In this document: positions 15,116-62,996 of the stretch, piece by piece
Layout of the letters: every line of letters begins with the position of its first letter
How positions within the stretch are numbered: the first letter of the stretch is position 1
Origin: Chiloscyllium plagiosum
Taxonomy: Eukaryota
Assembly (NCBI RefSeq): GCF_004010195.1
Contig: NC_057719.1
Coordinates: 38,874,887-38,938,886, forward strand
Direction of reading: 5' to 3'
DNA: 64,000 nucleotides
Program-made: the position numbers and the translations under genes
Notes under the pieces: generated by a model
Databases searched by the model: none
What the model saw: only the letters and a program-made list of their open reading frames with translations
Told to the model about the DNA's origin: nothing

Positions 15116-15322
15116 AAGAGAAAGTGATGACTGCAGATGCTGGAGTTCAGAGTCGAGAGTGTAGTGCTGGAAAAGCAGAACAGATGAGGCAGCATCTGAG
15201 CAGCAGAAGAATTAACATTTCGGGCAATTACTTCTGATGAAGGACTTGTGCCCAAAACGCCGATTCTCCAGCTACTTGGATGCTGCCTGACCTGCTGTGC
15301 TTTTCCAGTACTACACTCTCGA
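15116..15322. mobile_element. Short fold-back PLE-derived element with degenerate hammerhead
   Basis: Inverted arms at about 15152-15225 and 15250-15323; CTGATGA at 15234-15240; 14-bp TSD CATCAATTAATTAT (15102-15115 and 15323-15336). Confidence 0.85.
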
Positions 15323-16751
15323 CATCAATTAATTATCCACAGGGAATAATAAATTCTGAAATAATTAACTTATACACCCCTAATCAGCATAATATATTTC
15401 AGGACAACTTGGTCTTCTTACAGGAATCGCAAAGAACTCAAAAGATGAGTGATGACCACTACAAAATTAATGTCTCATTTTTTTCCAATGATTTATAAGA
15501 TAGCTGAAATATTGGATGTAGGATTAACCTTGTTTACTCATCAATCTCAAATTCATTATTGTATAATCCAACTACACATCCTGACACAGGTTCTACATCT
15601 TTAGACTTTGTAGCATTGTGAAATGGATCAAATACGGGAAAAAAAAATCAAGAAATGTTAACCTTGGTCAAAAAGCAAAATAATGTACAAGCTATGATAA
15701 GTTATGTTCAGCTAAAGCAGATTTGGCATCAATTCTAAGCATGGGAGGCTATTAATAGATGGAAAAGATTTCCATACTCAGTCAGCAAGCAGTGTAACCT
15801 CTGCATAAGAATGTTATAAGTTTGTGCAGCACACCATGTCTTAAGCACCCATCTAAAATGATACTTTGCTTATCAATTAATTTAATTTGCAGTTGAGACC
15901 AGTCCTATAGCAAGAATCCTTCTTACATTTCCTTCCTGGGGGTGCTGAGGTTAAATGCAAGACAAAGCTGTCATTCTAACTGAAATTATCTAACTCAAAC
16001 TGGACCTGAAACAGGAACCTCTTTGTGGTAGAATTGCACAATATCAACACTCAATTATTAGTTAGCATTAGAATTATTTATTGGATGTGTCACATTTCTC
16101 TGCTCCAAATATATTTTTTCTGAGTTCTAGAATGAAAAAAGTTATATTAAAACACTATAAGACTAATCAACTGAAGAAACATATAAAGGATCTTATTTTG
16201 AATACTTAGAAACAAAGGAACATGAGTAGGCCATTTAGCCTGTCAAGCCAGCATTGCCATTCAATTAGATTTGCATGAGAGGAGAATGCTGATTGTGTTC
16301 CTTTGACTTTGGTGTTTCTTGCAAATTGTGCAAGACACGAAGTTTCATCAAAACATGACGTTTTCAGCAACACTTTTCTTAGTCAAAAAGAGAAAGGATG
16401 CAATGTAAGGTTTAGGAAACTGAAGACAAACAGAGTCTTTGAAGAACACAAAGATAGTAGGAAAGAACTTAATCAAGGAATTAGGAAGGCTAAATGGGGC
16501 CATGAAATGTCTTTAGCAAACAGAATTAAGAAAAATCCCAAAGTGTTTTATACGTCTATAAGGAGCAAGAGGATAGCAAGGGACAGGATCTGTCCGCTCG
16601 GGGACAAAGGAGGGAATTTATGCAAGGAGCTAGAGGAAGTCGATGAGGTCGTTAATGAATGCTTTGCATCAGTACTCAAGAAGGAAGGGACATGGTGGAT
16701 GGTGAGTCTAGGGAGGAGTATGTTGATATTCTCGAGCAAGTCAATATAAAG

Positions 16752-17492
16752 GTCTCAAAGATGGCAACAGAGTAGCAGTGCAACATGAGCTGAGCTCATC
16801 TGCTCCATTTGCTTTCACTTTTTTCCTTCTTTCACTGTTTTCCTTTCTTTCTTTGATCTGTAGAGAGAGGGTTTCTGCAGGGTGTAAGAGGGTGAGCTCA
16901 GCAGATGGGACATTGAACTATTGTGGTGAGAGCGAGCCCGATGTGGCAATGAGAGAGGTCCCCCGGCATCTGTGGAAGTGTCTAGAGAAAGCAGGCTGAG
17001 GTGGTGATGAAGGCAGGGGAGATAGAGCTTATCTCTGGAGACAGCTCAGTTATGGAGGCAGCGGCGGCAATGGCACAGCAGCTTCATTGCATCTGTGGTA
17101 CGGCAGCAACTGGGGACCTAGATCGGGACTTTGGCAGTTAATGATTGAACCCAATGTGGAAACAGCGAGCCCAATGCAGTGGTGAGGGAGGTCCCCAGGC
17201 ATCTGTGGTGGTGGCGAAAGCAGGCAACCCAAGGTCTCCTAGAGAGCAGGCCAAAGCAAAGGAGATCGAGCTGTTGTAGGGACTATCATTTACTGTATAC
17301 TCAGCACAGTTAAGCACTTAGGAGGGACTGTAATGTTTAATTTTTAAACTTTGTTTTTTTATTTTTCTATTTTCTATCTAGGTACTTTTGATGGTGCCAG
17401 AAATGGCGACATTGTCCACTTTTCACTGTACTCAAGTTCTTCTATATTCCAGGGCAGGTGACAATAAAAGCTAATTCTAACTCTAGTTCTAT
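16752..17492 (+). mobile_element. Unclassified non-autonomous retroelement inserted in CR1
   Basis: Starts near AAGATGGC, has an internal imperfect duplication (about 16930-17050 and 17165-17280), and ends TTTTCACTGTACTC...GTGACAATAAAAGCTAATTCT. It interrupts the CR1 reading frame. Confidence 0.6.
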
Positions 17493-17608
17493 TAAAAAAA
17501 AAAGAGGTGGTGTAACACGTCTTAAAAAGCATTAAGATAGACAAATCCCCAGGATCTGATGGGATCTATCCAAGAATAATGAGGGAGGAAGGTCAAGAAA
17601 TTGCTGTG

Positions 17609-17815
17609 CTGAAAATGTGTTGCTGGAAAAGCGCAGCAGGTCAGGCAGCATCCAAGGAACAGGAGCATCAACGTTTCGGGCATAAGCCTGAAGAAGGGCT
17701 TATGCCCGAAATGTCGATTCTCCTGTTCCTTGGATGCTGCCTGACCTGCTGCACTTTTCCAGCAACACATTTTCAGCTCTGATCTCCAGCATCTGCAGTC
17801 CTCACTTTCTCCTCG
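17609..17815 (+). mobile_element. Short fold-back PLE-derived element with hammerhead core
   Basis: 81-nt inverted arms (17608-17688 and 17697-17777), a 3' tail, and a perfect 14-bp TSD AAGAAATTGCTGTG (17595-17608 and 17816-17829). Confidence 0.92.
17686..17717 (+). ncRNA. Minimal type I hammerhead ribozyme motif
   Basis: CTGAAGA-A-GGGC-TTAT-GCCC-GAAA-T-GTC. Confidence 0.7.
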
Positions 17816-18077
17816 AAGAAATTGCTGTGGCCTTGTATGACATCTTTAATCTTCTGGGAGAGGTCCCAGAGGACTGGAGACTAGCTTTGTTTAAGAAGGG
17901 GAGCAGGGATAATTCTGGAAATTATAGACTGTGAATCTTATGTCAGTGGTAGGGAAATAATTGGAGAAGATTCTTCGGGTATTTGCATGGAAAAATATGG
18001 CTTTGAACAGGGAAGGTCGTTCTCACAAACATGATTGAGTTTTTTGAGGAAGTGACAAATGATTGATAAGGACAGAG

Positions 18078-19570
18078 TCATAGCGATGTACAGCACAGGA
18101 GTAGATCTATCAGTCCAACTCATCCATGCCAACCGGATATCCCAACCCAATCTAATCCCACCTGCCAGCACCTGGCCCTTATCCCTCTAAACCCTTCCTA
18201 TTCATATACACATCCAGATGCCTTTTAAATGTTGCAATTGTACCAGCACCCCCACCCCCACTTCCTCTGACAGCTCATTCCATACATGTACCACCCTCTG
18301 TTAAAACGTTGCCCCATAGGACTCTTTTATATCTTTCCCCTCTCATCCTAAACCTATGCCTTCTAGTTCTGGACTCCCTGACCCCAGGGAAAAGACCTTG
18401 CCTATTTATCCTATCCATGCCTCTCATGATTTTGTAAACCTCTATAAGGTCACCCCTCAGCCTCCGATGCTCCAGGGAAAACAGCCCCAGCCTGTTTAGC
18501 CTCTCCCTATAGCTCAAATCCTCCAACCCTGGCAACATCCTTGTAAATCTTCTGAACCCTTTCAAGTTTCACAACAACTTTCTATCGCAGCCGCATCATG
18601 ACCTCCCAACTCCTGTACTCAATACTCTGAACAATAAAGGAAAGCATACCAAATGCCGCCTTCACTATCCTATCTACCTGCGACTCCACTTTCAAGGAGC
18701 TATGAACCTGCACTCCAAGGTCTCTTTGTTCAGCAACACTCCCTAGGACCTTACCATTAAGTGTATACAACCTGCTAAGATTTGCTTTCCCAAAATGCAG
18801 CACCTCACATTTATCTAAATTAAACTCCATCTGCCACTTCTCAGCCCATTGGCCCATCTGGTCAAGATCCTGTTGTAATCTGAGGTAACCTTCTGCGCTG
18901 TCCACTACACCTCCAATTTTGGTGTCATCTGCAAACTTACTATCTATACCTCTTATGCTCACATCCAAATCATTTATATAAATGGTGAAAAGTAGTGGAC
19001 CCAGCACCGATCCTTGAGAGACTCCACTGGTCACAGGCCTCCAGTCTGAAAAACAACCCTCCACCACCATCTTCTGTCTTCTACCTTTGAGCCAGTTCTG
19101 TATCCAAATGGCTAGTTCACCCTGTATTCCATGAGATCTAACCTTGCTAACCAGTCTCCCATGGGCAACCTTGTCGAACGCCTTACCTAAGTCCATATAG
19201 ATCACATCAACTGCTCTGCCCTCATCAATCCTCTTTGTTACTTCTTCAAAAAACTCAATCAAATTTGTGAGACATGATTTCCCACACACAAAGCCATGTT
19301 GACTATCCCTAATATCCTTGCCTTTACAAATACATGTACATCCCGTCCCTCAGGATTCCCTCCAACAACTTGCCCACCACCACCGTCAGGCTCACTGGTC
19401 TATAGTTCCCTGGCTTGTCCTTACCACCCTTCATAAACAGGGGCACCACGTTAGCCAACCTCCAGTCTTTCGGCACCTCACCTATGATTATCGATGATAC
19501 AAATATCTCAGTAAGAGGCCCAGCATTCACTTCTCTAGCTTCCCACAAAGTTCTAGGGTACACCCAATCA
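18078..19570 (-). mobile_element. Younger CR1 LINE (RT to 3' UTR) nested in the older CR1
   Basis: ORF 18582-19289 has 'KAFDKVAH', 'GVSQGSVLGPLLF' and 'KFADDTK'. Confidence 0.95.
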
Positions 19571-24124: not shown

Positions 24125-24240
24125 AGGAGATAAAATAAAGAAATGCAGGTGCTGGAAATTTGAAACAAAAACTGAAATTGCTGGCAAAACTCAGCACGTC
24201 TGGCAGCATCTGTAGAGAGAAAACAGAGTTAAGATTTTGG
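24125..24240 (-). repeat. PLE-tail repeat following a short CR1 fragment
   Basis: GCAGGTGCTGGAAATTTG...AAACTCAGCACGTCTGGCAGCATCTGTAGAGAG; CR1 'LTNLLEFYEEVT'-like sequence lies at 24020-24124. Confidence 0.65.
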
Positions 24241-25476: not shown

Positions 25477-26480
25477 TCAAAGTTTGTGCGAAGATTTGTA
25501 GCTTGGGTGCTCGTTGTTGTGGTTCTGTTCGCCGAGCTGGAAGTTTTTGTTGCAAACGTTTCGTCCCCTGGCTAGGCGACATTATCAGTGCTTGGGAGCC
25601 TCCTGCGAAGCGCTTCTTTGATGTTTCCTCCGGTGTTTATAGTGGTCTGTCACTGCCGCTTCCGGTTGTCAGTTTCAGCTGTCCGCTGTGATGGTTGGTA
25701 TATTGGGTCCAGGTCGATGTGTTTGTTGATGGAGTTTGTGGATGAATGCCATGCCTCTAGGAATTCCTTGGCTGTTCTGTCTGGCTTGCCCTATGATAGT
25801 AGTGTTGTCCCAGTCGAATTCATGTTGCTTGTTGTCCACAACCAAGAGGACTAGCCACACTACCATACATCAGGAGCATCTCAGAACTGACAGCCAGTCT
25901 ACTGCGACCCCTAGGACTCATAACGGTACACGAACTAACAGCCACGCTCAGACAACAACTCACCAGAACGAAGGACCCGATACCCAACATGAGCAAAGAC
26001 CCGATACCCAACATGAGCAAAACTAATGTAGTGTACAAAATACCATGCAAGGACTGCACATATAGGACAAACAGGAAGACAGCTAACAATCCGCATACAT
26101 GAACATCAACTAGCCACGAAACGACACGAGCAGCTATCCTTAGTAGCCACACACGCAGACAACAAGCGACATGAATTCGACTGGGACAACACTATTATCA
26201 TAGGGCAAGCCAGACAGAGAACAGCCAGGGAATTCCTAGAGGCATGGCATTCATCCACAAACTCCATCAACAAACATATCGACCTGGACCCAATATACCA
26301 ACCACTACTGCGGACAGCTGAAACTGACAACCGGAAATGGCAGGGACAGACCACTATAAACACCGGAGGAAACATCAAAGAAGCGCTTCGCAGGAGGCTC
26401 CCAAGCACTGATGATGTCGCCTAGCCAGGGGACGAAACGTTTGCAACAAAAACTTCCAGCTCGGCGAACAGAACCACAAC
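25477..26480. mobile_element. Penelope-like element (Penelope/Poseidon type), truncated, with inverted 3' ends
   Basis: GIY-YIG remnant 'NVVYKIPCKDC..IGQTGRQL..RIHEH...REFLEAWHS' on + (25841-26480), an inverted copy at 25477-25840, and a 14-bp TSD AACCACTT(T/C)ATGGT (25463-25476 and 26481-26494). Confidence 0.93.
26405..26444 (+). ncRNA. Minimal type I hammerhead ribozyme motif
   Basis: GCA-CTGATGA-T-GTCGCCT-AGCC-AGGGGAC-GAAA-C-GTT-TGC, with stem I GCA/TGC. The mirror copy at 25552-25591 (-) has CTGATAA (core mutated). Confidence 0.8.
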
Positions 26481-27119
26481 AACCACTTCATGGTGACACA
26501 AAGTGGCAGAAGTTGGGCACTAAAAGCTAATCATGACAACTAATTGTTACTCAAGGCTGAAATGGTGGTAGCAGCAGTGAAATTTGTGACAAGACCTTTT
26601 CCTCAAGTAATTTCTCAACACCTACTTGAGTTCAGAGCTGAAGTTAACAACCAAGACTAAAAGTGTAACAACCTATACTGAAGCACAGTATGTACTTAAG
26701 CTCCATAATGGAGACATAATATTTGTGAGTAACCTTTCAATCTCTCATTAAAAAGGAAGACCAGGGCTGATCTGATTTAACAAATGGACCTTTTACAAGT
26801 GTATGCTATAGCTCTAATCTAATAAAATTGATTCTTGGGCAAGATACAGAAAAAAGACGACAATTTTCTAAATTAATAAGGCCTTTCCTCTGCACAAATT
26901 CTGCCATTTTTTTTTGAAATGTTGGAAAAACAAGATAAAGTTGTGCATGACACTACTTGCAGGAACAGCTCAGCTATTCTTTTAAATGAAGAAAATATAA
27001 AAGGAAGTGATAAACTCAAATTATAATCAATCATAATTTTAAATAAAAACTTTTTACTTCCAAGACCAACAAACAATGATAAAGCTGAGAAAGCAGTCAA
27101 AAGCCTGTTGCTGTCAGAA

Positions 27120-28155
27120 CAAAATTGGCTCGAAGGTAAGAGACTTGGTGGTGGAGTGTTGCTTTATGGACGGGAGGTCTGTGACCAGTGGTGTGCCACA
27201 AGCATTGCTGCTGGGTCCACTGCTTTTTAACATTTAAATAAATGATTTGGATGTGAATATAGGAGGTATGGTGAGTAAGTTTGCAGATGACACCATAATT
27301 GGAGGTTTAATTGACAGCGACGAAGGTTACCTCAGTACAATGGGACATCAATCAGATGAGCCAGTGAACTGAGGAGTGGCAAATGGAACTGTGCGAGGTG
27401 CTACATTTTGGAAGGGCAAATCTGGCCATGACCTATGTACGTAATGGAAAGGACCTGGGCGGTGTTGCCAGACAAAGAGACCTTGGAGTGCAGGTTCATA
27501 GTTCTTTGAAAGTGGAGTCACGGGTAGATAGCATACCTTTATTAGTCAGTGCACTGCATATAGGAATTGGGAGGTCATGTTGCAGCTGTACAGGACACTG
27601 GTTAGGTCACTTTTGGAATATTGTGTTCAATTCTGGTCTCCCTGCTTCAGGAAATATGTTGGGAAACTTGAAAGGATTCAGAAAAGGTTTACACAGAGAT
27701 GTTGCCAGGGTTGGAGTATTTGAGCTATAGGGAGAGGCTGAATAGGCTGGAGCTGTTTGCCCTGGAGAGTCATAGGCTGAGGGGTGACCTTATAGAAGTT
27801 TATAAAATCATGAAGGGCATAGATAGGCTAAATAGACAAGATCTTTTCCCCAGGATGGGGGAGTTCAAAATAGAGGGCATGTGTTTAAGGTTAAGGGGAA
27901 ATATTTAAAATGGACTAAGGGGCAACGTTTTCACAGAGGTTGGTGCATGTATGGAATGAACAGCCAGAGGAACTTATGAAGGCTGGTACAATTACAACAT
28001 TAAAAGACACCTGATGGGTATATGAATAGGAAGCATTTAGAGGGATATGGGCCAATTGCTGGCCAAGGAGACTAGATTAATTTAGGATATCTAGTCAGCA
28101 TGGACAAGTTGGATGAAGGATCTGTTTCCATGCTGCACATCTCTAAGACTCTAAA
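27120..28155 (+). mobile_element. Degraded CR1 LINE (RT to 3' UTR)
   Basis: 'SKFADDT', 'CEVLHFGRAN', 'RLRGDLIEVYKIMKG'. Confidence 0.92.
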
Positions 28156-31059: not shown

Positions 31060-31850
31060 GCCATACAAATATTGTAGCTACAAATGCTGCTCAGAATCTG
31101 GGAATTCTAAGGCAAATAACTTACCTTCTGACTGCTTACAACCTATTCATCATCTAGAAGCACAAATTCAGAATGCGAATACTCTTAATTTGCTTGAATG
31201 AGTCAAGTTCCAACAACACAAGCTCAACACCATCCAGAAAAATAATACTAACAGTTAAGTATTGCAGATGCTGGAAATTTGAAATAAAAACATAAAATGC
31301 TGGAGAAACTCAACAGGTCTGGCAGCATCTGTGGAGAGAGAAACAAAGTTAATGTTTTGAGTCTGGTATGATTCTTTTTCAAAACTCTAATCTAGAAATG
31401 CAGATATTGCTGTCAGCAATTCTATTCTTCCCCCCTTTTGTTCCAAAGAAGACTCATACTTGACTTGAAATATGAACATTATTTTAGGTCAAAGTAGCCC
31501 ACTGATCAGCATCCCATCTGTAAATTTAAACATATACTTCCTACACTGCTGTGCACAGTGGCAGCTGGATTTATTATCTAAACAACTCGCTGTAGCAAGT
31601 CACCAAGATTCTTTCAATTGCATTTCTCAAAAGCACAAAATAGAAGAACAAGGGCAATAGATGGACAAGAAGACTATTAACAGCTGCAAGTTTCCCTCCA
31701 TATCATACACCACTTCAACTTGGAAATATACTGTGTTTCCTTCAATTTTAGTGGGTCAAAAATCTTGGAATATCCTATCTAACAGAATTGTGGGTAAATA
31801 GAGGCATCAGGAACTATAAGGGTTAAAGGTAGCAAGTCACCACTTGCCAT
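31060..31850 (+). mobile_element. Degraded LINE 3' part (family of 45995-46940) interrupted by a PLE-tail repeat at about 31255-31480
   Basis: CAACAACACAAGCTCAACACCATCCAG and ACTTGGAAATATA match 46.5-46.8 kb. The insert has GCAGATGCTGG...CTGGCAGCATCTGTGGAGAGAG. Confidence 0.65.
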
Positions 31851-42346: not shown

Positions 42347-43061
42347 ATTTATTAAATTCTAACAAGACTAGACAGGGTAGATGCATGGACGATGTTCCTG
42401 ATGGTGGGTGCCTCCCGATCCAGGGATCACAATCTGAGGATTTGGAGTGGATCATTTAGGATGAAGATGAGGAAACATTTCTTTACCCAAAGAGTGGTGG
42501 GCTTGCAGAATGCATTACCAAAGGATTTAGTTGATGTCAAAACATTAATGTATTCAAGGGGCGGCTAGATATAGCACTTAGGGCGAATGGGACCAAAAGT
42601 TATGGGGAGAAAGCAGGATTAGGCTGTTGAGTTAGACAATCAGCCATGATCGTGATGAATGGAGAGCAGGCTCAAAGGGCCAAATGGCCTCCTCCTGCTC
42701 CCATCTTCTATGTTTTGATGTTTCTATGTTAGTTCAGTTTAGGAAACCTGTTGGCATGGATGGGTTGAGCTGAAGGGTCTGTTTCCATGCTGTATGAATC
42801 TATGATTCGGCATTGAAACTTATCTGTCAACAATCTGCCCACTCCACCAACTTGTCTATGTTCTTCTGGAGTTTTACACTTTTTCTTCACAGTTTACAAT
42901 TCTTCCAAGTATCTGGAAACACTAAAATTGCCCACTGCATATCAATATCTACATAATTAATATTTATCAAGAAGAACAAGTTCCCAATTTTGACCCCTGG
43001 GAAACTCCACTACAAATCATCCTCTTGCCCAAAAAATGTCCATTGACCATTACTTCCTGTT

Positions 43062-43192
43062 GGGGTAAAAACAATGACTGCAGATGCTGGAAACCAGATT
43101 CTGGATTAGTGGTGCTGGAAGAGCACAGCAGTTCAGGCAGCATCCGAGGAGCAGTGAAATCGATGTTTCGGGCAAAAGCCCTTCATCAGGAA
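43062..43192 (-). mobile_element. 131-bp monomeric hammerhead-headed PLE-derived element
   Basis: Minus strand starts TTC-CTGATGA-A-GGGC-TTTT-GCCC-GAAAC-ATC. Perfect 11-bp TSD TACTTCCTGTT (43051-43061 and 43193-43203). Confidence 0.9.
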
Positions 43193-44157
43193 TACTTCCT
43201 GTTTCCTATTGCTCAGTAAGATTTTTTAGTTTTATCCTTTTGTTAGCTTTGTAACATTTAGTCTTGATTTTTGTTGTTTTCATTGGTTTTTCTTCTCTTT
43301 GCCCCTCCCTGCCAATCTCCGACACTCATTGCTCATATTAATATTTTCCTCTTTTTGGTTTACTCTCTGCTATACCACCTTTTCCAACATTTGATCCTTT
43401 GCTCCACTCTCTCACCTTAGTCACAGTCTCACCAACAAACCACAAAGTTTCCTGTCATTAGCTACATCCTTATCTAAACATCCAATCAATTTCATCCCTT
43501 CTCATCCCAGAGCTACATCAGCCATGAAAATTATCATTGAATTCAGTGCAGTCCATCCTCATACTTACATGAAATATGATGCAGTAATGTTTCCAACATT
43601 CCTTTGAACCTTATGAAGTTTCATAAATGTTGGGGTGCTTTTGCTCAGAATTCATCACCTTTTAATTCATTGCTACATTATCAAGATGCCAATATTAGTT
43701 TTCCAAACACTAATGGCTTGGTACAATTTGACCCGCATTTGCCACCGAAGCACATTCGCTTTACAAATGAGTGATGAATTGAATATGAATGAAATGTAGC
43801 AGCAGCTTGCAAACAGATGCTTTATATATTTGTCCCTTCAATGGACTAGTGGCTAGTGGATGAGCAGATGTGGATTCCTGGCTTTCAGTCATAAAAGTGA
43901 CACTGATTGTGCCCAGCCCGAGCGTTGTCCCTGCCATTTCCAATTGCATTTCACATCCAGAGAACAGCAAGTGATGACAGGAAACACAACTCAAAACAGA
44001 TACCACCAATACTGGACTCTGTCTGGTCTTAAGATATCTCCCCACTCCCAGAGCCTCCATGCCCCTTCTACGCCCCACCACTCTGCAACCCATTTCCATC
44101 AATCCTTCCCCAATATGGACATCCATCACGTTGAACTTCACCTCCAACTGTCCTCAC

Positions 44158-47246: not shown

Positions 47247-48333
47247 TATAGAGTCATAGAGTCATAGAGATGGAAACAGACCCTTCGGTCCAACCCATCC
47301 ATGCCGACCAGATATCCCAACCCAATCGTCCAACCTGCCAGCACCCTGCCCATATCTCTCCAAACCCTTCCTATTCATATACCCATCCATATGCCTCTTA
47401 AATGTTGCAATTGTACCAGCCTCCACCAAATCCTCTGGCAGCTCATTCCATACACGTACCACCCTCTGCATGAAAATGTTGCCCTTTAGGTCTCTTTTAT
47501 ATCTTTCCCCTCTCACCCTAAACCTATGCCCCAGGGAAAAGACTTGCCTATTTACCCTATCCATGCCCCTCATAATTTTGTAAACCTCTATAAGGTTACC
47601 TCTCAGCCTCCGACGCTCCAGGAAAATGCCCCAGCCTGTTCAGCTTCTCCCTATAACTCAGTTCCTCCAACCATGGCAACATCCTTGTAAATCTTTTCTG
47701 AACCCTTTCAAGTTTCACAACATCCTTACGATAGGAAGGAGATCAGAATTGCACACAATATTCCAACAGTGGCCTAACCAATGTCCTGTACAGCCGCAAC
47801 ATGACCTCCCAACTCCTGTACTCAATACTCTGACCAATAAAGGAAAGCATACCAAACGCCTTCTTCACTATCCTATCTACCTGCGACTCCACTTTCAAGA
47901 AGCTATGAATCTGCACAAGGTCTCTTTATTCAGCAACACTCCCTAGGACTTTACCATTAAGTGTGTAAATCCTGTTAAGATTTGCTTTCCCAAAATGCAG
48001 CACCTTGCATTTATCTGAATTAAACTCCATCTGCCACTTCTCAGCCCATTGGCCCATCTGGTCCAGATCCTGTTGTAATCTGAGGTAACCCTCTTTGCTG
48101 TCCACTACACCTCCAATTTTGGTGTCATCTGCAAACTTACTAACTGTACCTCTTATGCTCGCAACCAAATCACTTATGTAAATGACAAAAAGTAGAGGGC
48201 CCAGCATCGATCCTTTTGGCATTCCACTGGTCACAGGCCTCCAGTCTGAAAAACAACTCTTCACCACCACCCCTCTGTCTTCTTCCTTTGAGCCCGTTCT
48301 GTATCCAAATGGCGAGTTCTCCATGTATTCCAT
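47247..48333 (-). mobile_element. CR1 LINE (RT to 3' UTR)
   Basis: 'SKFADDTKIGG' and 'QRVVRVWNELP'; tail repeat GACTCTAT. Confidence 0.94.
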
Positions 48334-48655
48334 GTTGTGGGGACAAGGCTTAAAGAAGGGCAGAGCCGGGTGTTAAATAATCCTAGTTACAAAGTTTTTA
48401 AAAAGAAAGAAAGAAAGGAAAAAGGAGGTGGGATGACCTTTTTGGTTAATGGAGTAAAAGGACGTTTTTGAGGGTTCAAGGGCAGAAACAGTTTTGGCTG
48501 AAGCTAAAACGCAAGGTGAGAAAAATAAAGTGTTTTGAATGGAATACTACCTGGAACTAAAGTGGAGGCAGGTTCAATTGAAGCATTCAAGAGGATATTG
48601 AATGATTATTTCAATAGGAACAATGTTATGGGAAAAGGCAGGAGAAGGCAGGAAG

Positions 48656-51600
48656 GATAAGGGAGATAGGCAGCTAGTGCAGGAGTTTTGGAAAATGTAG
48701 GGGGTGATGGATTCTCAGGGGCACGTAGCACGAACAGCCAAGTTTTTGGTATTGAGACTGGCTCTAATGCAACGAGGGGTACATCGGCTTCCAAGAGATC
48801 AATTGTGTTAGGGGATTCTGTAGTCAGACGGTTCTGTGGCCAGCAAAGAAAAAGCAGAATGATGTGTTGTTTCCCTGGTGCTCGGATCAAGGATGTCTCA
48901 GAGAGGGTGCAGAATGTTCTCGGGGGGAGAGGGGCNNNNNNNNNNNNNNNNNNNNNNNNNNNNNNNNNNNNNNNNNNNNNNNNNNNNNNNNNNNNNNNNN
49001 NNNNNNNNNNNNNNNNNNNNNNNNNNNNNNNNNNNNNNNNNNNNNNNNNNNNNNNNNNNNNNNNNNNNNNNNNNNNNNNNNNNNNNNNNNNNNNNNNNNN
49101 NNNNNNNNNNNNNNNNNNNNNNNNNNNNNNNNNNNNNNNNNNNNNNNNNNNNNNNNNNNNNNNNNNNNNNNNNNNNNNNNNNNNNNNNNNNNNNNNNNNN
49201 NNNNNNNNNNNNNNNNNNNNNNNNNNNNNNNNNNNNNNNNNNNNNNNNNNNNNNNNNNNNNNNNNNNNNNNNNNNNNNNNNNNNNNNNNNNNNNNNNNNN
49301 NNNNNNNNNNNNNNNNNNNNNNNNNNNNNNNNNNNNNNNNNNNNNNNNNNNNNNNNNNNNNNNNNNNNNNNNNNNNNNNNNNNNNNNNNNNNNNNNNNNN
49401 NNNNNNNNNNNNNNNNNNNNNNNNNNNNNNNNNNNNNNNNNNNNNNNNNNNNNNNNNNNNNNNNNNNNNNNNNNNNNNNNNNNNNNNNNNNNNNNNNNNN
49501 NNNNNNNNNNNNNNNNNNNNNNNNNNNNNNNNNNNNNNNNNNNNNNNNNNNNNNNNNNNGAAATTGAGAAACAAACTTGTAAGGAGATCTCAGCTATCTG
49601 TAAGAATAATAGGGTAGTTATGGGAGGGGATTTTAACTTTCCAAACATCAACTGGGCATGCCGTAAGTGTTAAAGGTTTAGATGGAGAGGAATTTCTTAA
49701 GTGTGTACAAGACAATTTTCTGATTCACTATGTGGATGTACCTACTAGAGAAAGTGCAAAACTTGACCTACTCTTGGGAAATAAGGCAGGGCAGGTGACT
49801 GAGGTGTCAGTGAGGGAGCACTTTGGGACCAGCGACCATAATTCTATTTGTTTTAAAATAGTGATGGAAAAGGACAGACCAGATCTAAAAGTTGAAGTTC
49901 CAAATTGGATAAAGGCCAATTTTGATGGTATTAGGCAAGAACTTTCGAAAGCTGACTGGAGGTAGATGTTCGCAGATAAAGGGACGGCTGGAAAATGGGA
50001 AGCCTTCAGAAATGAGATAACAAGAATCCAGAGAAAGTACATTCCTGTCAGGGTGAAATGCAAGGCTGGTAGGTATAGGGAATGCTGGATGACTAAAGAA
50101 ATTGAGGGTTTCGTTAAGAAAAAGGAAGGATATGTCAGGTATAGACAGGATAGATCGAGTGAACCCTTAGAAGAGTATAAAGAAAGTAGGAGTATACTTA
50201 AGAGGGAAATCAGGAGGGCAAAACGGGGACATGAGATAGCTTTGGCAAATAAAATTAAGGAGAATCCAAAGGGTTTTTCTCAAAGATCAGCAAGGTGGCC
50301 TTTGTGTGGAGCCACAGAAAATGGGGGAGGTACTAAATGAATAATTTGCATCAGTAATTCCTGTGGAAAAGGATATGGAAGATATAGACTGTAGGGAAAT
50401 AGATGGTGACATCTTGCAAAATGTCCAGATTACAGAGGAGGAAGTGCTGGATGTTTTGAAACGGTTAAACGTGGACAAATCCCCAGGACCTGATTAGGTG
50501 TACCCTAGAACTCTGTAGGAAGCTAGAGAAGTGATTGCTGGGCCCCTTATATTTGTAGCATCGATAGTCACAGGTGAGGTGCCGGAAGACTGGAGGTTGG
50601 CAAACATTGTGCCACTGTTTAAGAAGGGCGGTAAAGACAAGCCAGGGAACTATAGACCGGTGAGCCTGACCTTGGTGGTGGGCAAGTTGTTGGAGGGAAT
50701 CTGAGGGACAGGATGTACATGTATTTGATTAGATTAGATTAGATTAGATTCCCTACAGTGTGGAAACAGGCCCTTCGGCCCAACAAGTCCACACCGACCC
50801 GCCGAAGCGTAACCCACCCAGACCCATTCTCCTACAATTACCCCTTCACCCAACACTACGGGCAATTTAGTGTGGCCAATTCACCTGACCTGCACATTTT
50901 TGGATTGTGGGAGGAAACCGGAGCACCCGGAGGAAACCCATGCAGACACGGGGAGAATGTGCAAGGCAAGGACTGATTCGGGATAGTCAACATGGTGTTG
51001 TGTGTGCGAAATCATGTCTCACAAACTTGATTGAGTTTTTGAAAAAGTAACAAAGAGGATTGATGAGGGCAGAGCAGTAGATGTGATCTATATGGACTTC
51101 AGTAAGGTGTTCGACCAGGTTCCCCATGGGAGACTGATTAGCAAGGTTAGATCTCATGGAATGCAGGGAGAACTAGCCATTTGGATACAGAACTGGCTCA
51201 AAGGTAGAAGACAGAGGGTGGTGGTGGAGGGTTGTTTTTCAGACTGGAGGCCTGTGACCAGTGGAGTGCCACAAGGATCAGTGCTGGGTCCTCTACTTTT
51301 TGTCATTTACATAAATGATTTGGATGTGAGCATAAGAGGTACAGTTAGTAAGTTTGCAGATGACACCAAAATTGGAGGTGTAGTGGACAGCAAAGAGGGT
51401 TACCTCAGATTACAACAGGATCTGGACCAGATGGGCCAATGGGCTGAGAAGTGGCAGATGGAGTTTAATTCAGATAAATGCGAGGTGTTGCATTTTTGGA
51501 AAGCAAATCATAGCAGGACTTATACATTTAATGGTAAGGTCCTAGGTAGTGTTGCTGAACAAAGAGACCTTGGAGTGCAGGTTGTAGATAGGTTAGTGAA

Positions 51601-52240
51601 GAAGGCATTTGGTATGCTTTCCTTTATTTGTCAGAGTATTGAGTACAGGAGTTGGGAGGTCATGTTGTGGCTATACAGGACATCGGGTAGGCCACTGTTG
51701 GAATATTGCGTGCAATTCTGGTCTCCTTCCTATCGGAAAGATGTTGTGAAACTTGAAAGGGTTCAGAAAAGATTTACAAGGATGTTGCCAGGGTTGGAGG
51801 ATCTGAGCTACAGGGAGAGGCTGAACTGGCTGGGGTTGTTTTCCCTGGAGCGTCGGAGACTGAGGGGTGACCTTATAGAGGTTTACAAAATTATGAGGGG
51901 CATGGATAGGATAAATAGATAAAGTCTATGGGACTCCAGAACTAGTGGGCATAGGTTTAGGGTGAGAGGGGAAAGATATAAAAGAGACCTAAAGGGCAAC
52001 TTTTTCACGCAGAGGGTGTTACGTGTATGGAATGAGCTGCCAGAGAATGTGGTGGAGGCTGATACAATTGCAACATTTAAGAGGCATTTGGATGGGTATA
52101 TGAATATGAAGGGTTTGGAGGGACATGGGCCGGGCGCGGGCAGGTGGGACTAGATTGGGTTGGGATATCTGGTTGGCATGGACGGGTTGGACCGAAGAGT
52201 CTGTTTCCATGCTGTACATCTCTGTGACTCTATGGCTCTA
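48656..52240 (+). mobile_element. Near-complete CR1 LINE: SGNH/esterase-like ORF1 and EN-RT ORF2, disrupted
   Basis: ORF1 'IVLGDSVVR...CCFPGARIKDV'; EN 'GDFNFPNINW' and 'SDH'; RT 'GVPQGSVLGPLLF' and 'FADDTK'; 3' UTR. Stops, frameshifts and an N gap are present. Confidence 0.94.
50728..50962 (-). mobile_element. HE1-type V-SINE (5'-truncated) nested in CR1
   Basis: (ATTAG)n tail and V-domain GAGGAAACCGGAGCACCCGGAGGAAACCCA. Confidence 0.9.
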
Positions 52241-52353
52241 GGAGACTGGCACTAATTTAAAATGATCAGAGAACGAGTGCAGACTTTGTGAGAAGATTTG
52301 TAGCTTGGGTGCTCGTTGTTGTGGTTCTGTTCGCCGAGCTGGGAATTTCTGTT

Positions 52354-52393
52354 GCAGACATTTCGTCCCCTGTCCAGGTGACATCCTCAGTGC
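52354..52393 (-). ncRNA. Minimal type I hammerhead ribozyme motif
   Basis: Minus strand reads GCA-CTGAGGA-T-GTCACCT-GGAC-AGGGGAC-GAAA-T-GTC-TGC. Confidence 0.72.
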
Positions 52394-53697
52394 TTGGGAG
52401 CCTCCTGTGAAGCGCTTTTGTGATGTTTCCTCTGGCATTTATAGTGGTTTGTCTCTGCCGCTTCTGGTTGTCAGTTCCAGCTGTCCGTTGCAGTGGTGTC
52501 GTTTCATGGCTAGTTGGTGTTCATGGATGCAGATCGTTAGCTGTCTTCCTGTTTGTCCTATGAAGTGTTTTGTGCAGTTCTTGCATGGGATTTTGTACAC
52601 TACATTGGTTTTGCTCATGCTGGGTATCGGGTCCTTCATTCTGGTGAGTTGTTGTCTGAGAGTGGCTGTTGGTTTGTGTGCTGTTATGAGTCCTAGTGGT
52701 CGCAGTAGTTGGCTGTCAGTTCGGAAATGCTCTTGATGTATGATAGTGTGGCTGGTTGTGTCGTTTTGTGGCTAGTTGGTGTCCCTTAGGCATCTCACAG
52801 GATGCCACACTCACAGGAATCTGATTCACTAGAGAGGAAGAAAAGGACAACTAACTCCCATTCCTTGAAATGATGGTACAGAAAATACCTAACGGAGAAT
52901 TCACCACAAAGATATACAGGAAAGCCACACACACAGACCAAGTCCTGAACTACGAAAGCAACCACCCCAACACACACAAAAGAAGTTGTATCAAGACACT
53001 GTTCAAAAGGGCCACAACACACTGCATTACACCAGAACTGCAAAAAGAGGAAGAGGAACACCTGTACAATGTATTTGCCAAAAACGGATACCACCGCAAT
53101 TTCATCAACAGATGCCTAAGGGAAAGACAACGGAACGAGGACATGCTGCAACCCAAAGGACTAGCCACACTACCATACATCAAGAGCATTTCCGCACTGA
53201 CAGTCAACTACTGCGACCACTAGGACTCATAACAGCGCACAAACCAACAGCCACTCTCAGACAACAACTCACCAGAACGAAGGACCCGATACCCAGCATG
53301 AGCAAAACCAATGTAGTGTACAAAATACCATGCAAGGACTGCACAAAACACTTCATAGGACAAACAGGAAGACAGCTAACGATCCGCATCCATGAACACC
53401 AACGAGCCACGAAACGACACGACCAGCTATCCTTAGTAGCCACAAACGCAGATGACAAGCAACATGAGTTCGACTGGGACAACACTACTATTATATGACA
53501 AGCCGAACAGAGAACAGCCAGGGAATTCCTAGAGTCATGGCACTCATCCACAGATTCAATCAATAAGCACATCGACCTGGACCCAATACACCGACCACTG
53601 CAGCGGACAGCTGGAACTGACAACCAGAAGCAGCAGAGACAAACCACTATAAATGCCGGAGGAAACATCATAGAAGCGCTTCACAGGAGGCTCCCAA

Positions 53698-53737
53698 GCA
53701 CTGAGGATGTCACCTAGACAGGGGATGAAACGTCTGC
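53698..53737 (+). ncRNA. Minimal type I hammerhead ribozyme motif
   Basis: GCA-CTGAGGA-T-GTCACCT-AGAC-AGGGGAT-GAAA-C-GTC-TGC. Confidence 0.78.
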
Positions 53738-54426
53738 AACAGAAATTCCCAGCTCGGCGCACAGAACCACAACAACCAGTGCAGACATTAGGTCTAATGG
53801 TCTTTTTCTGCACCTTAACATTTCTGTGATTCTAGGTGTGATTGGGAGTGCTGGGCATAAAGTTATTGTTCCCTGACAGCAAGGGGAAAATCTTGACAAT
53901 AAGTTTGCAAAAACACAGGCTAGGAAGGCTAAAACGGAAAGGGAGTATTTACCTTTCGGTCAAATATTGCTACCATCATGTATAGGCTGCTCATTGCCAA
54001 GCTGCTGTAGACAGAGCAAGGGCCCAAAAATTATTTTAAAACTCATGCCTTTACTAAAAGGGAAAAAAAGGCAAATTTTAGAGATTTGAGAAAAGAGACT
54101 AATAAAAGAAGAAAGTTAAAAGAATTTTAGTACGTCAGAAGATTGAGAAACATAATTTGAACTATGCTTTTGGTGGGAAGAATCATTACAGTTGTATCTA
54201 TTTTAAAAATTGTGGAAAGGGACATGCTTCGTGCTTTGTACTGTGACAGGCATAAAAACATCTATTTTACTCAGGATTGTGGAATCCTCAATTCTGATTG
54301 CAGAAGTTAAAGGGATGTTCCTGAAGGTAGGAAACAATAGTGAAGGGAAGAAAACCCAGTAAAGCAATACAGAGATACAGTATCGCTATTCAGCACAATT
54401 CAAACTTAAACAAAGCAACATAATAA

Positions 54427-56220: not shown

Positions 56221-56390
56221 GGTAAGTGGAGCCTCCACCCCGGAGACTCCTTGCCTCATTCCTGATGAAGGGCTTTTGCCCGAAACGTTGATTTTCCTGC
56301 TCCTCAGATGGTGCCTGACCTACTGTGCTTTTCAAGCATCACTCTAATCTTGACTCTGATCTCCAGCATCTGCAGTCTTCACTTTCGTCT
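56221..56390 (+). mobile_element. Short hammerhead-bearing PLE-derived element
   Basis: Same body and tail as the 17.6, 43.1 and 62.9 kb copies. Confidence 0.85.
56259..56291 (+). ncRNA. Minimal type I hammerhead ribozyme motif (intact core)
   Basis: TTC-CTGATGA-A-GGGC-TTTT-GCCC-GAAA-C-GTT-GA. Confidence 0.75.
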
Positions 56391-56399
56391 ACATTGCTG

Positions 56400-57767: not shown

Positions 57768-59068
57768 TTTTGGCATGACATGTGACAATCTGCAATACTA
57801 GTTCAGTAACATTAGTACTAAGTGACCATTACTCAAATGTAAGATTCTGAAGGGAAGTTGTAATATGGACCATGACAAGCTATATAATAACCTATTCTTG
57901 CCACCATTATGTTTTAACATGCACTTATAGTGGGAAAGTCATGATCATTGTATCAATGATATCTGCTTCAATCAGTAACTGCACATCACAATTACAAAAC
58001 AAACTTCTAAATAAGGTTTTTACTGCTCTCTGTTCTAAGTTCCATCTTCATTCTAGATATTCTAGACCAATCGGTTCCTATCTCATTTTTTCATAATTGT
58101 ATTTTGCTCTAATTAGCAGCAACTCCAATTTTGCAACTATCTCTTTACATTTCCTCATATTTGTCAATGTTCCAGTGAATCTGAACTCCACCTTCTTGAC
58201 TGCCACAATGTAACTCTTGTAGAGTGTTCAGAACTGCACAAAGTTCCATAATTGTGGTTTTATCAAATATTTTACATAGGTTCACTATTACATGTCAATT
58301 TTATATGCTATGCCTCTAGTCTAAAATCCAATATTCTATTTGTTATTTTTTGTTCTAATCCAATAGAGGTGACAGAAATCTACCTTACCCCTCAACCCAT
58401 CAAATTGTTTTGTTCCAAAACAGACTCAAAACGTCAATCTAGGTTCAAGAACACTAATGGCATGCACACCTAAAACAGAATCTCATCCACCTTGCTGTCT
58501 CAGAAGGTGAGTTAATGATTCAAAATCATTGTTACTCATTCCTGTGCCGAGCCTACAGCTTAATTATAGATGTGAATACGTTTCACCTAATTAAAGAGTT
58601 AGAAACATTTTTGAAAAGTAGTTGAACATCAACTAATTATATATTTTCTACATGATATTATATTAAAATAAGGCAGAGGTTAAGAACATACTTGAGTTTT
58701 CAGCGAATTCTGAATGGAAACCTAATAAGATATAATGCATTTTTCTTCCTGAAATTTAAAACTATAAAAGCACATCTGCATCATGAACACACTAGCTGTG
58801 GTGACCAGTTTTGGAACAATTCCACTACAATTTCCTTTCCAACAGGGAGCACAGTTAGTGTTTACTTTATCAAGTTAATTATTTTACTTTTTACCTTACG
58901 TGCTGTTTAATGCTTGCCTTTCCTCCCACCGAGCACTGCTGAAACAAACAAAACAATACAGAGACTATCTGGCTGCTGCACTGTACATAATATACAGGTT
59001 TTATTTCCTATCACAATGTTATTTTAAAGAATCTCATCCGCATGTAAAAGTGATCTACAAAGTGAACA

Positions 59069-60377
59069 AAGTAGTCAGGCAGCGGGCTGGAAGAACACAG
59101 CAAGCCAGGCAGCATCAGGAGGTGAAGAAATCAACGTTTCAGGTTCTTCAGGATTGGGGGTGGGTGTAAGGGGAGCTGCAGATAAAGGGGATGATGGGGA
59201 CTGGGCGGTGAAGTGGGGATAGGTGAAGGCTAGCAGAAGGTGCGGCCTGGTTGGTCAATGGAAGGAATGAATCCGATAGGTGGCTGGGAGGGGTGAAAGG
59301 AAGGGGGAGGGGCTGTAAAGGGAGTTGGGGATGGGAAGAGAGGTTATTTGAAATTGAAGAACTCAATGTTGAGTAGTCAGGCTGTAGGCTGCCCAGGCAG
59401 AAGATGAGGTGTTGCTCCTCCAATTTGCGGTTTGGTTTGTTGTGGCAATGGAGGAGGCCAAGGATGGTCATGTCGGAAAGGGAGTGGGAAGGGGAATTAA
59501 AATGGGCAGTGCTCATATGCTCGGATGAGGAGATATTCCACTCCCAAGCATCCCAGATGTACACCTATTTTGAACAACATGCTGTTCCTCCTTTTATCAT
59601 CCAGACAGCCCTCAACCCAACCACTTCCATTCCCTGTTCCACTGCTCTAAATCCCTCCCCCTCCAAGTGCAACAAAGACAGAGTCTCCCTTGTCTTCATC
59701 TACTACCTCACCAGTCTCAGCATCCAATGCATCATCCTTAAACATTTCCTCCAACTCCAACCTGACCCCACCACCAAGAATATCAACTCATCCCCTCCCC
59801 ACCCCTCTCTGCCTTCCATAAGGACCATTCCTTTTGACATTCCTTGGTTTGCACCACTCTCCTCACCAACCCGCCCACCCCCCGAACCCCCAGGTACCTT
59901 CCCCACAACTGGAAAAGATGCAAAACCTGCCAGTTCACCACCCCCCTCACCTCCAGCCAGGGTCCCAAACATTCCATCCAGGTGTGACAGAGGTTCACCT
60001 GCCTCTTTTCCAGCCTAGTTTACTGCATCAAGTGCTTCTGATGTGATCTTCCTTACATCAGGGAAACGGAATGTAAACTTAGGGAACTCACCAACCATCT
60101 CAGCCAGGCCCATAGGGGCCGACCAGACCTCCCAGTCACTACCCATTTTAGTTCCCAACAAGGTCGTACCCTCTGTCTGTCTTCATCTATCCCCTTCACC
60201 ACCCTGCCCCCATCACCTCTCTTATCTGCAGCTCACCCTGCATCTACCCCTAGACCTAAGAAGGATTACACCCAAAACATTGACTTCTCCACCTCCTGAT
60301 GCTGCCTGGATTGCTGTGTTCTTCCAGCCTCCCGCCTGTCGACTTTGGTTTCCAGCATCTGCAGATGTTGTGTCCCT
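59069..60377. mobile_element. Neptune-type Penelope-like element, truncated, with inverted 3' end
   Basis: Plus strand: 'LICSDEEIF...DRVSLVFIYY', Cys-linker 'PGTFP..KRCKTC' and 'LVYCIKC..YIRET'. Minus strand: 'HFNSPSHSLSDMTILGL...RKLEEQHLIF.LGSLQP'. 13-bp TSD TACAAA(G/A)TGAACA (59056-59068 and 60378-60390). Confidence 0.88.
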
Positions 60378-61844
60378 TACAAAATGAACAGGCTGACTTT
60401 AAAAACATTGAAATACATCAATCATGATGTCATTTTAAACATCCGCATTGCTTGTAAAAATGATTCATAAAGATAACAGACTGATAATATTGAAATTAAT
60501 CATCAAGATATTTTCAGAAAATAATTTGTTCAGGTCACTGGCTCTTTCCCTTCCAGAAATAGAGCATTTTAAAAATCATTGTTCTTTGTTCTTTGTATTG
60601 AAATACCCATTTAAATAACATACTTTTGTGTTTACAATATACTTCTGACATCCAGTGTAACAGAACTGATAAAAATAAAGGAAGGAGAAACAAAAAAGGG
60701 TAAGAATGTCCCTGTTTGCTATCTATACAAAAATCAAAAATGTGTGCATGAAGAACAAATTTTTTCTCTCATCCCAAAAGATGGATGATTCTGGAATCCT
60801 ATGTTATGAGAACAGTGCATTGGAGACAGAGACAATGAATTCTCTATTCTCTTCATATTATGCTAGTTCCTTGCAGTTTAAATGAAGAACACTTTTTCAG
60901 GAGACTCATTTCATAAAGGTACATGAAAGATAAAGACGCTGATCTGTTTACTTTTCTCTTTTCACTGCCATGAAATATCTGATAAAGTACAAAATAAAAA
61001 TGCACAGCAAAAATAAAGCTCAGTCCACAGAGGCTTCAAATAGTTAAATGTGTTCCTTACAGAACGTCATGTAGTAATTACAAGGTTTGTACTTTCTGAC
61101 ACCATGCACTAACCAATAAATTGGACTAATAAAAGATATAATTATCTTCGAATTGCAGGAGACAGCAACATTGACTGTGACTGCATAGCTTACTTCTGTC
61201 TAATTTTGTACCAAAATATTGAAATAAAAATAAATATATATTTTAAACAATTGTTAGCACAACCAGAAAATTAAAAATTACTTATTAGGTGGAAAGATTA
61301 TAGCTTAAACTACACTTGCTGTCAAACAAATACCGAAGAAGTTAGCAATACCACTGTTACATGAAACAAACACAAATGCTGGCACTTTCATCTATTCATC
61401 TCATCTGAAACACATTCGATAGCAAAATTCACTAATAAGGATAAATGACATGACATACTGTAATTGAACTGTTTAATGAAAATCCAACTAATTCTGTAGC
61501 ATATTTTCCCATCAGTAAAAATAAAACAAAGCTGCTGTCAGTTGGCCAACATCTGCTTGTTTCCAGCTGTGACATTGTGTTGAGTTGTATATAGTAGCAC
61601 AATACTCTGTCAAAAAGAGGAGGGGGGAGGAACTGCAAGATTTCAGAACAACTTAAATCAAGTGTCTGTCAGATGGTTGTACAGCAATTTATGGTGTGTG
61701 ACTGCACATTCATTTCATTTAATTATGTTTTTAAAACGGCTCATGGGAAGGACCAAATCTCAGGGAATAAATCTAAGAAATAGGGTAGAATTATCAATGA
61801 AAATGTTATAAGAAGGTTATTATTGTTGTATGGGGAGACAACAG

Positions 61845-62182
61845 CCAAGTGATACTATGACTAGATTACTAATCCAGAAACTCAACTAATGTTCTAGGAC
61901 CTGACTTCAAATCCTGCCATGGCAGATGGGGAATTTGAACTCAATAATTAAAAATCTGAAATCAAGAATCTACTGATGACTATGAAAACATTGCCAATTG
62001 TCAGGAAAAACCATCTGGTTCACTAATGTCCTTCAGGGAAGGACATCTGCCATCCACACCTGGTCTGGCCCATATGTAACTCCAGACCCACAGCAATGTG
62101 CTTGACTCTCACTGCCATCTGAAATGGCTGAGCCAGTTACTCAATTCAAAGGCAGCTAGGGATGGGCAATAAATGCTATCCC
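61845..62182 (+). mobile_element. DeuSINE/SacSINE1-like SINE
   Basis: B-box-like CTTCAAATCC, core CTGGTTCACTAATGTCCTTCAGGGAAGG...ACTCCAGACCCACAGCAATGTG, and tail GGGATGGGCAATAAATGCT. Confidence 0.75.
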
Positions 62183-62412
62183 TAGTGGATAAGAAAGAAA
62201 ATCTTATTTCAAATGTTTATAAACTAATTCAGTTGATCTGATCTCAGTGTTGCGATGGAAATGGGTTACAACCAAGACCTTCTGACCAGTGCTCTCTGAC
62301 TGTGGTGTCTACTATAAAGGTGCGCTAGCTGAAATTATCCTTGTTTATCAGTCATCCAACATTTTAAAATTACAGATTGATACTAATATTTTTTGTGTGG
62401 GGTCTCTCATAA

Positions 62413-62865
62413 CATGGCAGAATCTTCACCACTGTCAATATCTTATATTATATTGTGTGGCAAAACCATCTAATTCTGAATCAATTCTGTATCATAGAAA
62501 ATGTCTCTATTATACTGTACAGCTCAATTCCATGTCTGAAGAATTTGATTTTAAATCTTCTTGGAGGTGTAATCTCTTTCTCCATTGTCATTTTATTTAA
62601 CTGCTGTTGTTTCACATATTTAAATTATTTATTTGAAAGTTTTGCAGACATTTTATTGGAGATGTAGCTGGCTTTACTGTTCAGTGTCTTCTTCAGCAAG
62701 TTTTAAAAGTAATAATACCAGTAGGCCACCACCTTCTCTTGAATTATGCTCCTGTTTGTATAGAAGAGATTATTTCCAAGTGTTTAAAGATCATTGATTC
62801 AGAATTAGATGGTTTTGCCACACAATATAATATAAGATATTGACAGTGGTGAAGATTCTGCCATG
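62413..62865. repeat. Perfect 73-bp inverted repeat with a 307-bp spacer
   Basis: 62413-62485 is the exact reverse complement of 62793-62865. Confidence 0.95.
62486..62715 (-). pseudogene. Gypsy 5' UTR/gag start remnant
   Basis: Minus strand 'MEKEITPPRRF...RHFL*YRI'. Aligns to 34655-34900 (AAAACTTGCT.AAGAAGAC, ACACTGAACAGTAAA, CCTCCAAGAAGATTTAAAA). Confidence 0.6.
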
Positions 62866-62996
62866 ATTCCTGAAGAAGGGCTTATGCCCAAAACGTCGAT
62901 TCTCCTGCTCCTCTGATGCTGCCTGGCCTGCTGCGCTTTTCCAGCACCACACTTTTCAACTCTAGTCTCCAGCATCTGCAGTCCTCAATTTCTCCC
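62866..62996 (+). mobile_element. 131-bp monomeric hammerhead-headed PLE-derived element (G12 mutated)
   Basis: ATTC-CTGAAGA-A-GGGC-TTAT-GCCC-AAAAC-GTC followed by the family body and tail. Confidence 0.85.

Follow-up and report, generated by a model that had tools for sequence, protein, structure and literature searches.

Short hammerhead-bearing inserts in a shark genome are terminal-repeat copies of a Penelope-like element and probably record reverse transcription up to the RNA start

Five short inserts with a hammerhead ribozyme motif lie in a 64,000-nucleotide stretch of the genome of the shark Chiloscyllium plagiosum (NCBI RefSeq assembly GCF_004010195.1, contig NC_057719.1, positions 38,874,887 to 38,938,886 of the forward strand; hereafter the window). 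The inserts are the hammerhead-bearing terminal repeat (pseudo-long terminal repeat, pLTR) of a 3.2-3.4 kb Penelope-like element (PLE) with a reverse transcriptase (RT) and a GIY-YIG endonuclease (EN), and they carry the known tail and inverted arm. The short copies are probably products of an RT that starts inside an uncleaved RNA, about 95 or 130 nt from its 5' end, and runs off at the predicted capped start, -4 (all unit positions count from +1, the C of the CUGANGA core). We observed the layout of the parent element, two classes of 3' end, target site duplications (TSDs), a sharp 5' boundary, an extra G specific to one position, and short and long copies that interleave. Very many stubs begin at about -4, often with the extra G, and therefore likely record run-off of RT at a capped RNA start.

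Parent element of the inserts

Most of the 30 best genomic matches to the insert at 43062 extended upstream into a common pyrimidine-rich untranslated region (UTR), and one of them, L028, reached a GIY-YIG frame (E 1.8e-4). Parts of many long parent copies are N, and the layout was read from two copies, L110 and L118: unit, start of the open reading frame (ORF) near +165, RT, CX4CxxC linker, GIY-YIG, 215-nt UTR and the unit again. An identical unit stands directly behind the GIY-YIG ORF and ahead of the ORF start, and in both L110 and L118 it forms a direct terminal repeat before and after the ORF. The 514-amino-acid frame of L118 scored 23.6 bits for GIY-YIG (cut-off 22.6) and 16.3 bits for RVT_1, under the cut-off of that model; the RT motifs DKG and YIDD were visible in the parent frame. 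The parent ORF had 543 homologs at E<=1e-20, the nearest named proteins being those of carpet sharks (83-88%), followed by other sharks and rays, in keeping with a shark host; the parent copies that were read carry frameshifts or are partly N. Translations of L028 and L118 have a CX2-5CxxC linker between RT and EN. This linker defines the Neptune type and is shared with Nematis (PMC8557442), and the assignment to Neptune proposed in an earlier sequence-only reading of the window agrees with it, the class being judged from the linker alone. The frame already lies open inside the hammerhead, far ahead of the shared first ATG near +165 (L110:1831-2816, L118:2062-2900), and upstream of RT it includes a long Pro/Thr-rich stretch.

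Copies were counted in contiguous stretches of nine contigs (864,000 bases, 840,603 of them not N, the window included). Of 182 raw matches, 27 traced to flank carried in the references and 13 belonged to an older, distant family; with these removed, 142 arms in 108 insertions remained. Extrapolation gives about 600,000 arms, or about 1.6% of the genome. The 3' ends were bimodal, with 43 at +85 to +99 and 56 at +120 to +134 among 115 arms of the first census, centred near +90 and +126. These two classes match the two internal RT starts of an anole PLE in vitro (PMC11167929). Head-to-head inverted pairs, mostly joined near the core, accounted for 34 of the 108 insertions, and TSDs of 8-15 bp flanked 24 of the 34 pairs and 14 of 36 short solo copies. 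The sequence-only reading was right that the inserts carry PLE insertion marks.

A sharp boundary at the 5' end

The 5' ends were scored in the 134 unmasked arms of the 142, five calls being corrected by hand where the alignment crossed an inverted junction. The plotted starts were not random, as the starts close to the core in the window had led the sequence-only reading to suppose: 38 ends lay at -9 to -1 as against 5 at -29 to -10 (p = 8e-15). Further upstream there were 5 at -99 to -30 and 15 at -100 or beyond; inward, 26 lay at +1 to +9, 18 at +10 to +19, 2 at +20 to +28, 10 at +29 to +39 and 15 further in. The same boundary was seen in the non-inverted arms alone (15 vs 3) and in an independent 200-kb portion of the census (10 vs 1). 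The end-caller was unbiased, and produced no boundary in 317 simulated truncations. In a position-ordered sample of 30 copies, 20 unmasked ends lay at -9 to -1 and none at -35 to -10. ORF-linked copies derive from the 5' repeat, because they run on into the ORF start; when 30 such copies of subfamily e were examined, 12 of the 17 reaching +7 began at the boundary.

The A at -4 stands in a context resembling the known initiator consensus, and an AT-rich, TTTATCT-like motif lies about 31 nt upstream of it in the subfamily references read. A splice acceptor was rejected as the origin of the boundary: AG is present at -8 in some subfamilies only, and no common upstream exon was seen. One poly(A) single-cell RNA run yielded 414 reads from both strands, 69 of them with loose ends at -4, which are explained by read-through of genomic copies; a second run had no matching reads.

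Two other hammerhead-bearing families served as controls. Family 2 is an unrelated, Poseidon-like PLE with its own hammerhead (longer stem II), an AC-rich 3' end and inverted arrangements; it is present in the window at 25510-26483, 42215-42308 and 52277-53779, and a 25-base stretch of its core has 12,366 exact matches in the genome. None of 30 family 2 ends lay in -19 to 0, at the ribozyme. Family 3 (L161-L190) is unrelated in sequence to the inserts and has 6,791 exact core matches genome-wide; it is known from its arms, its ORF lying outside the region reached. Its stem II has 5 bp, TATAAA stands 30 nt upstream of an A at -8, and it shows a long UTR with CA repeats, a tail and inversions. 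Here 17 of 30 ends fell at -9 to 0, near the A at -8; a G preceded 3 of 4 junctions at -8, too few to weigh. Since the boundary occurs in family 3 and not in family 2, it is neither an artefact of the search nor a trait of every hammerhead.

An extra G at the boundary

Exact matches of subfamilies b and e, in which the parent base at -5 is C, were counted genome-wide. Before A-4, G was found in 4,874 of 8,093 matches and A or T in 3,219 (G 60%, expected 25%); before T-3, G was found in 1,172 as against C or T in 7,267 (14%, expected 29%). The odds ratio for G at the A-4 junction relative to the T-3 junction was 9.4. In non-inverted copies G preceded 10 of the 18 junctions at exactly -4 (expected 4.7), and no significant excess of G was found in such copies at -3, -2, -1 or in other junction classes. 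Thirty G loci were sampled and inspected by eye. In about nine the G matched neither parent, target nor inverted arm, and four of these had exact TSDs; it was common to the target in about eight and to the inverted arm in about seven, and the remainder had filler. The G might also have come from a jump onto the ATTC that recurs at +30, but by eye none of the 30 G copies has the duplicated core sequence that this would leave, and the idea was discarded.

In L1, an extra G is the mark of insertions that are full-length and capped (PMC11702581), and by analogy the G at the -4 junction would stem from the RNA cap. Non-templated addition at the end of the template would likewise point to an RNA end at -4.

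Proposed route of copying and its alternatives

According to the route we propose, A-4 would be the main transcription start and the RNA would be capped there. RT would prime internally on this RNA at +128 or about +92, and the complementary DNA (cDNA) would run off at -4, the cap adding a G. The run-off cDNA may then be joined to the target or to another cDNA that was primed on the opposite strand (giving the inverted arm), or it may jump template. The template could be the full-length mRNA or short RNAs of truncated copies that retain the upstream promoter; stubs that begin at -4 lack the upstream AT-rich motif and would mostly be dead ends. Long copies may owe their origin to strand transfer or to RT primed within the 3' repeat. 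Parts of this route have precedents: transcription starts within the pLTR in D. virilis Penelope (PMC2377424), rotifer pLTRs have TATA/Inr-like motifs (PMC3846280), and the anole PLE has two internal RT starts, cuts and extends both strands and uses uncleaved RNA (PMC11167929).

Several observations weigh against this route. Twenty-six of the 69 arms that reach -1 pass -30, and therefore another route must exist, by strand transfer or by a start of RT in the 3' repeat. The ends spread from -9 to +19, with -3 as frequent as -4; trimming or several starts are therefore needed. The boundary was weaker in the ORF-linked sample of subfamily c. In about half of the sampled copies the G could equally have been supplied by the target or the inverted arm. 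The 414 reads of the poly(A) run contained no site where many molecules begin, and gave no direct support for the 5' end. Finally, a rule placing the start 30 nt below a TATA motif fits the insert family and family 3 and was rejected for family 2, where the motif varies between copies and the boundary predicted 30 nt below its TATA-like form is absent.

The alternative that fares best, although we consider it unlikely, is that RT starting from the 3' repeat of the full-length RNA drops off past the hammerhead at a bound protein or a fold, with no RNA end there. By eye, 12 of 60 ORF-linked loci held an internal piece followed by a second unit whose start lay between -4 and +3, and these can also be read as internal deletions made in this way; the boundary of family 3, at a similar distance from the core in an unrelated sequence, would suit it as well. 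Such a block does not predict an excess of G restricted to one position, ORF-linked 5' copies begin at the same place, family 2 has a hammerhead and no boundary, and the hammerhead helices would already be unwound once RT is past the core.

A separate non-autonomous family of the retrozyme or short interspersed element (SINE) kind, in which one or a few 131-nt masters are transcribed alone and mobilised in trans, was the central proposal of the sequence-only reading. It did not find support, as the same unit flanks the parent ORF, short copies do not form lineages of their own within subfamilies and stem II lacks covariation, and we now regard it as improbable. The copy number is indeed very high, and short copies dominate subfamilies b (56 of 68 rows) and e (42 of 52 rows). 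The comparison of short and long copies covered 168 rows (112 short, 56 long) from four subfamilies, with a tree on 70 columns and limited power. On this tree the short and long labels were clustered (31 changes vs 41.9 when shuffled, none of 500 shuffles as low), which speaks for separate short copies and against their origin by run-off from the parent; we ascribe the clustering to near-duplicate rows and to subfamilies that differ in their share of short copies. One column of subfamily c splits short from long (4/12 vs 25/28, p = 0.0007 uncorrected), but it is a CpG site, and the sample was ranked against a query carrying that change, which is the probable cause. The distance between short copies was not below that between short and long copies in any of the four subfamilies (permutation p 0.66-1.0), four sets of identical rows held both short and long copies, and no variants private to short copies as a lineage of their own were found within the limited power of these 168 rows and 70 columns. 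Junctions and inverted arms vary from copy to copy, and the boundary (-4) is not at the predicted cleavage site (+28/+29). Within the census stretches no head-to-tail tandem units, each with a hammerhead, were found abutting among the 142 arms, which included 11 same-strand neighbours within 1 kb.

A last alternative is that fold-back or joining through microhomology at the palindromic hammerhead creates the boundary incidentally, with self-priming on an antisense template as proposed at palindromes of rotifer PLEs (PMC3846280). This would account for the 34 of 108 head-to-head insertions, most joined near the core, but is very improbable because non-inverted copies have the same boundary (15 vs 3) and the same excess of G (10/18, expected 4.7).

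Run-off at a capped start thus remains our preferred account of the short copies, and it can be extended, as a tentative proposal that we would not yet back over its negation, to the replication of Neptune-type PLEs as a whole. They might replicate through a retrovirus-like strong-stop product: RT would prime near the capped 5' end and copy the repeat, and would then have to jump to the 3' repeat before the ORF could be copied. The roughly 600,000 stubs would be integrated products of jumps that failed, with the hammerhead uncut on productive templates. If true, a single mechanism would account for pLTRs, for partial tandems and for chimeric copies.

The hammerhead motif

The family's common form reads as a minimal type I hammerhead, as first proposed from the letters of the window, with a CUGANGA/GAAA/UH core, stem II and a palindromic helix III. 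These features were complete in 21 of 74 census arms. A full motif had been attributed to all five window copies and is present in one only (core at 56262): the core at 17688 has a tolerated helix III change, that at 43189 a broken helix III pair, and those at 15234 and 62870 lack G12 (hammerhead residues carry their usual names). The window contained 20 occurrences of the loose core pattern, where 6.9 were expected. Scanning with a stricter, minimal hammerhead descriptor, a check suggested with the original proposal, gave 28 matches in 664 kb and 0-2 in five shuffles; an Rfam search gave no match at the gathering threshold. Covariation of stem II among subfamilies, looked for in 158 hammerheads, was not found: the stem is constant, the loop and N7 vary, and there were only two single double-sided changes.

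The hammerhead cut is placed after GUH, which is +28/+29 here. In a type I hammerhead the cut falls on the 3' side of the core, so that a cleavage product would begin at +29 and lack the core. The boundary at -4 lies 32 nt upstream of the predicted cut, and therefore the ribozyme is not its maker. Near the predicted cut itself there were 10 ends at +29 to +39 vs 2 at +20 to +28 (p = 0.04) and none in the replicate set. A pile-up at the cleavage site was accordingly dismissed as weak and not replicated; the ends at +33 to +40 begin several bases beyond the cut, and some are microhomology deletions. The poly(A) single-cell run, a poor test for circular RNA, had no back-joints indicative of it in its 414 raw reads.

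The region of the body 46-110 nt into the unit (e.g. 43062-43150, minus strand) folds into a similar long stem in four copies, closing just before the end of the tail. In the folding models this stem is a candidate protein-binding or priming structure; its folding z-scores were -2.2 in one copy and about -0.2 to -0.4 in the three others, and give no evidence of structure.

Comparison with known systems

EN+ PLEs of the Neptune type (Craig et al. 2021, PMC8557442; Arkhipova et al. 2013, PMC3846280) have the same RT, Cys-rich linker, GIY-YIG and pLTR at both ends, and show heavy 5' truncation, an adjacent inverted copy, an optional 30-40 bp tail and TSDs. Their 5' truncation is described, in the accessible text, without a sharp boundary, whereas here most stubs end at one place and with an extra G. 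Minimal hammerheads of metazoan PLEs (Cervera & De la Pena 2014, PMC4209133) resemble ours in the core, an extra base before stem II, a G-C closing pair, palindromic helix III and weak helix I, and are mostly single dispersed motifs that were already read there as truncated PLEs. The shark hammerhead differs in its invariant 4-bp stem II. Cleavage and circular templates were proposed in the same work, whereas the shark stubs keep the whole ribozyme, and therefore their templates were uncleaved.

Poseidon PAc of Anolis (Frangieh et al. 2024, PMC11167929) likewise has two internal RT starts that define the tail, both strands are cut and extended, and unprocessed RNA is the main substrate. PAc belongs to a different clade, however, its ORF starts inside the hammerhead rather than near +165, and the accessible parts of that paper report no 5' boundary or extra G. 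Non-LTR retrozymes (Li, Clavereau & Pollet 2026, 10.64898/2026.07.22.740005; PMC7761336) are also pLTR-derived, non-coding, dispersed monomers with a type I hammerhead, and have been reported in one chondrichthyan; the preprint may include a chondrichthyan family that overlaps the shark family. In contrast, tandem ribozyme units and cleavage-to-cleavage circles define them and neither was seen here; the retrozyme features that we tested, taken also from PMC6155905 and PMC6765202, were not found. L1 insertions with a cap-derived G (PMC11702581) share the extra G at the 5' junction where RT meets the RNA end. L1 primes at the 3' poly(A), so that a copy reaching the cap is full-length, whereas priming here would be internal with a run-off of 95-130 nt.

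The inserts work like an EN+ PLE with a minimal hammerhead and share its tested features; they represent a known kind of element and no new mobile system. Literature searches, with Repbase, Dfam and most subscription papers outside their scope, gave no account of the shark family, of the 5' boundary or of an extra G in PLEs. The element class, the ribozyme and inserts with tail and inversion being known already, the value of the finding is mechanistic. The 5' boundary with its extra G bears on how PLEs are copied and on what the hammerhead does, and it can be tested: across thousands of genomic junctions a single base is indicated as the capped RNA start, and uncleaved RNA as the template.

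Inserts in the window and other features

The five inserts (at 15116, 17609, 43062, 56221 and 62866; a to e in Table 1) are related as originally described, with a mutual similarity of 76-90%. Perfect TSDs were confirmed in three (14, 14 and 11 bp for a, b and c), and none of at least 8 bp was found at 56221 or 62866. Both monomers, c and e, measure 131 bp, as had been reported. Inserts a and b had been taken for single units and are in fact head-to-head pairs of a tailed arm (end about +127) and a tail-less arm (end about +90); in a the hammerhead is carried by the tail-less arm. The claim that the units start close to the core stands for four of the five hammerhead arms, which begin no more than 5 nt away (a at +1, b at -1, c at -3, or -5 with two TSD-shared bases, and e at -4), and fails for d, which reaches about -30.

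Table 1. Positions of the inserts, their flanking duplications and older relatives in the window
Feature	Position	Strand	Remarks
Insert a, left TSD	15102..15115		14 bp; right copy 15323-15336
Insert a, tailed arm	15116..15227	-	+16 to +128; without CUGANGA core
Insert a, tail-less arm	15234..15322	+	+1 to about +90; decayed hammerhead (G12 lost, stem II mismatch)
Insert b, left TSD	17595..17608		14 bp; right copy 17816-17829
Insert b, inverted tail-less arm	17609..17688	-	+10 to +90
Insert b, tailed arm	17687..17815	+	from -1; core start 17688
Insert c, TSD	43051..43061		11 bp; other copy 43193-43203, its two insert-side bases also match the parent (microhomology)
Insert c	43062..43192	-	131-bp tailed monomer of the youngest subfamily; core start 43189; helix III pair broken by CpG change
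Insert d	56221..56392	+	short fold-back followed by parent 3' UTR (from about -30, 56233) and a tailed unit; intact core 56262; no clean TSD
Older copy of the insert family	59024..59504	-	extends upstream across the UTR as far as the coding sequence of GIY-YIG
Older decayed arm of the insert family	60258..60364	+	with about 100 nt of upstream parent sequence
Inverted 73-bp piece on 5' end of insert e	62793..62865	-	copy of genomic 62413-62485; last base is the G before A-4
Insert e	62866..62996	+	131-bp tailed monomer from A-4; core 62870, G12 lost; no TSD

The source of the inverted piece on insert e is flanking DNA 300 bp from the insert, which suggests that the run-off cDNA jumped onto nearby genomic DNA. 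Outside the window, L253 is a chimeric insert with pieces of two subfamilies and L259 combines pieces of the insert family and family 3; both suggest jumps between different RNAs.

Kilobase-size copies of another repeat (70-90% identity), which look like 3' ends of CR1-type long interspersed elements, lie at 18074-19324, 27119-28153, 39653-40669, 47248-48334 and 50489-52233, and inserts b and d are located within such CR1-like sequence. An older, distant relative that has only part of the body in common with the insert family, the source of the 13 weak matches dropped from the census, is present at 24133-24239, 31255-31359 and 63860-63936.

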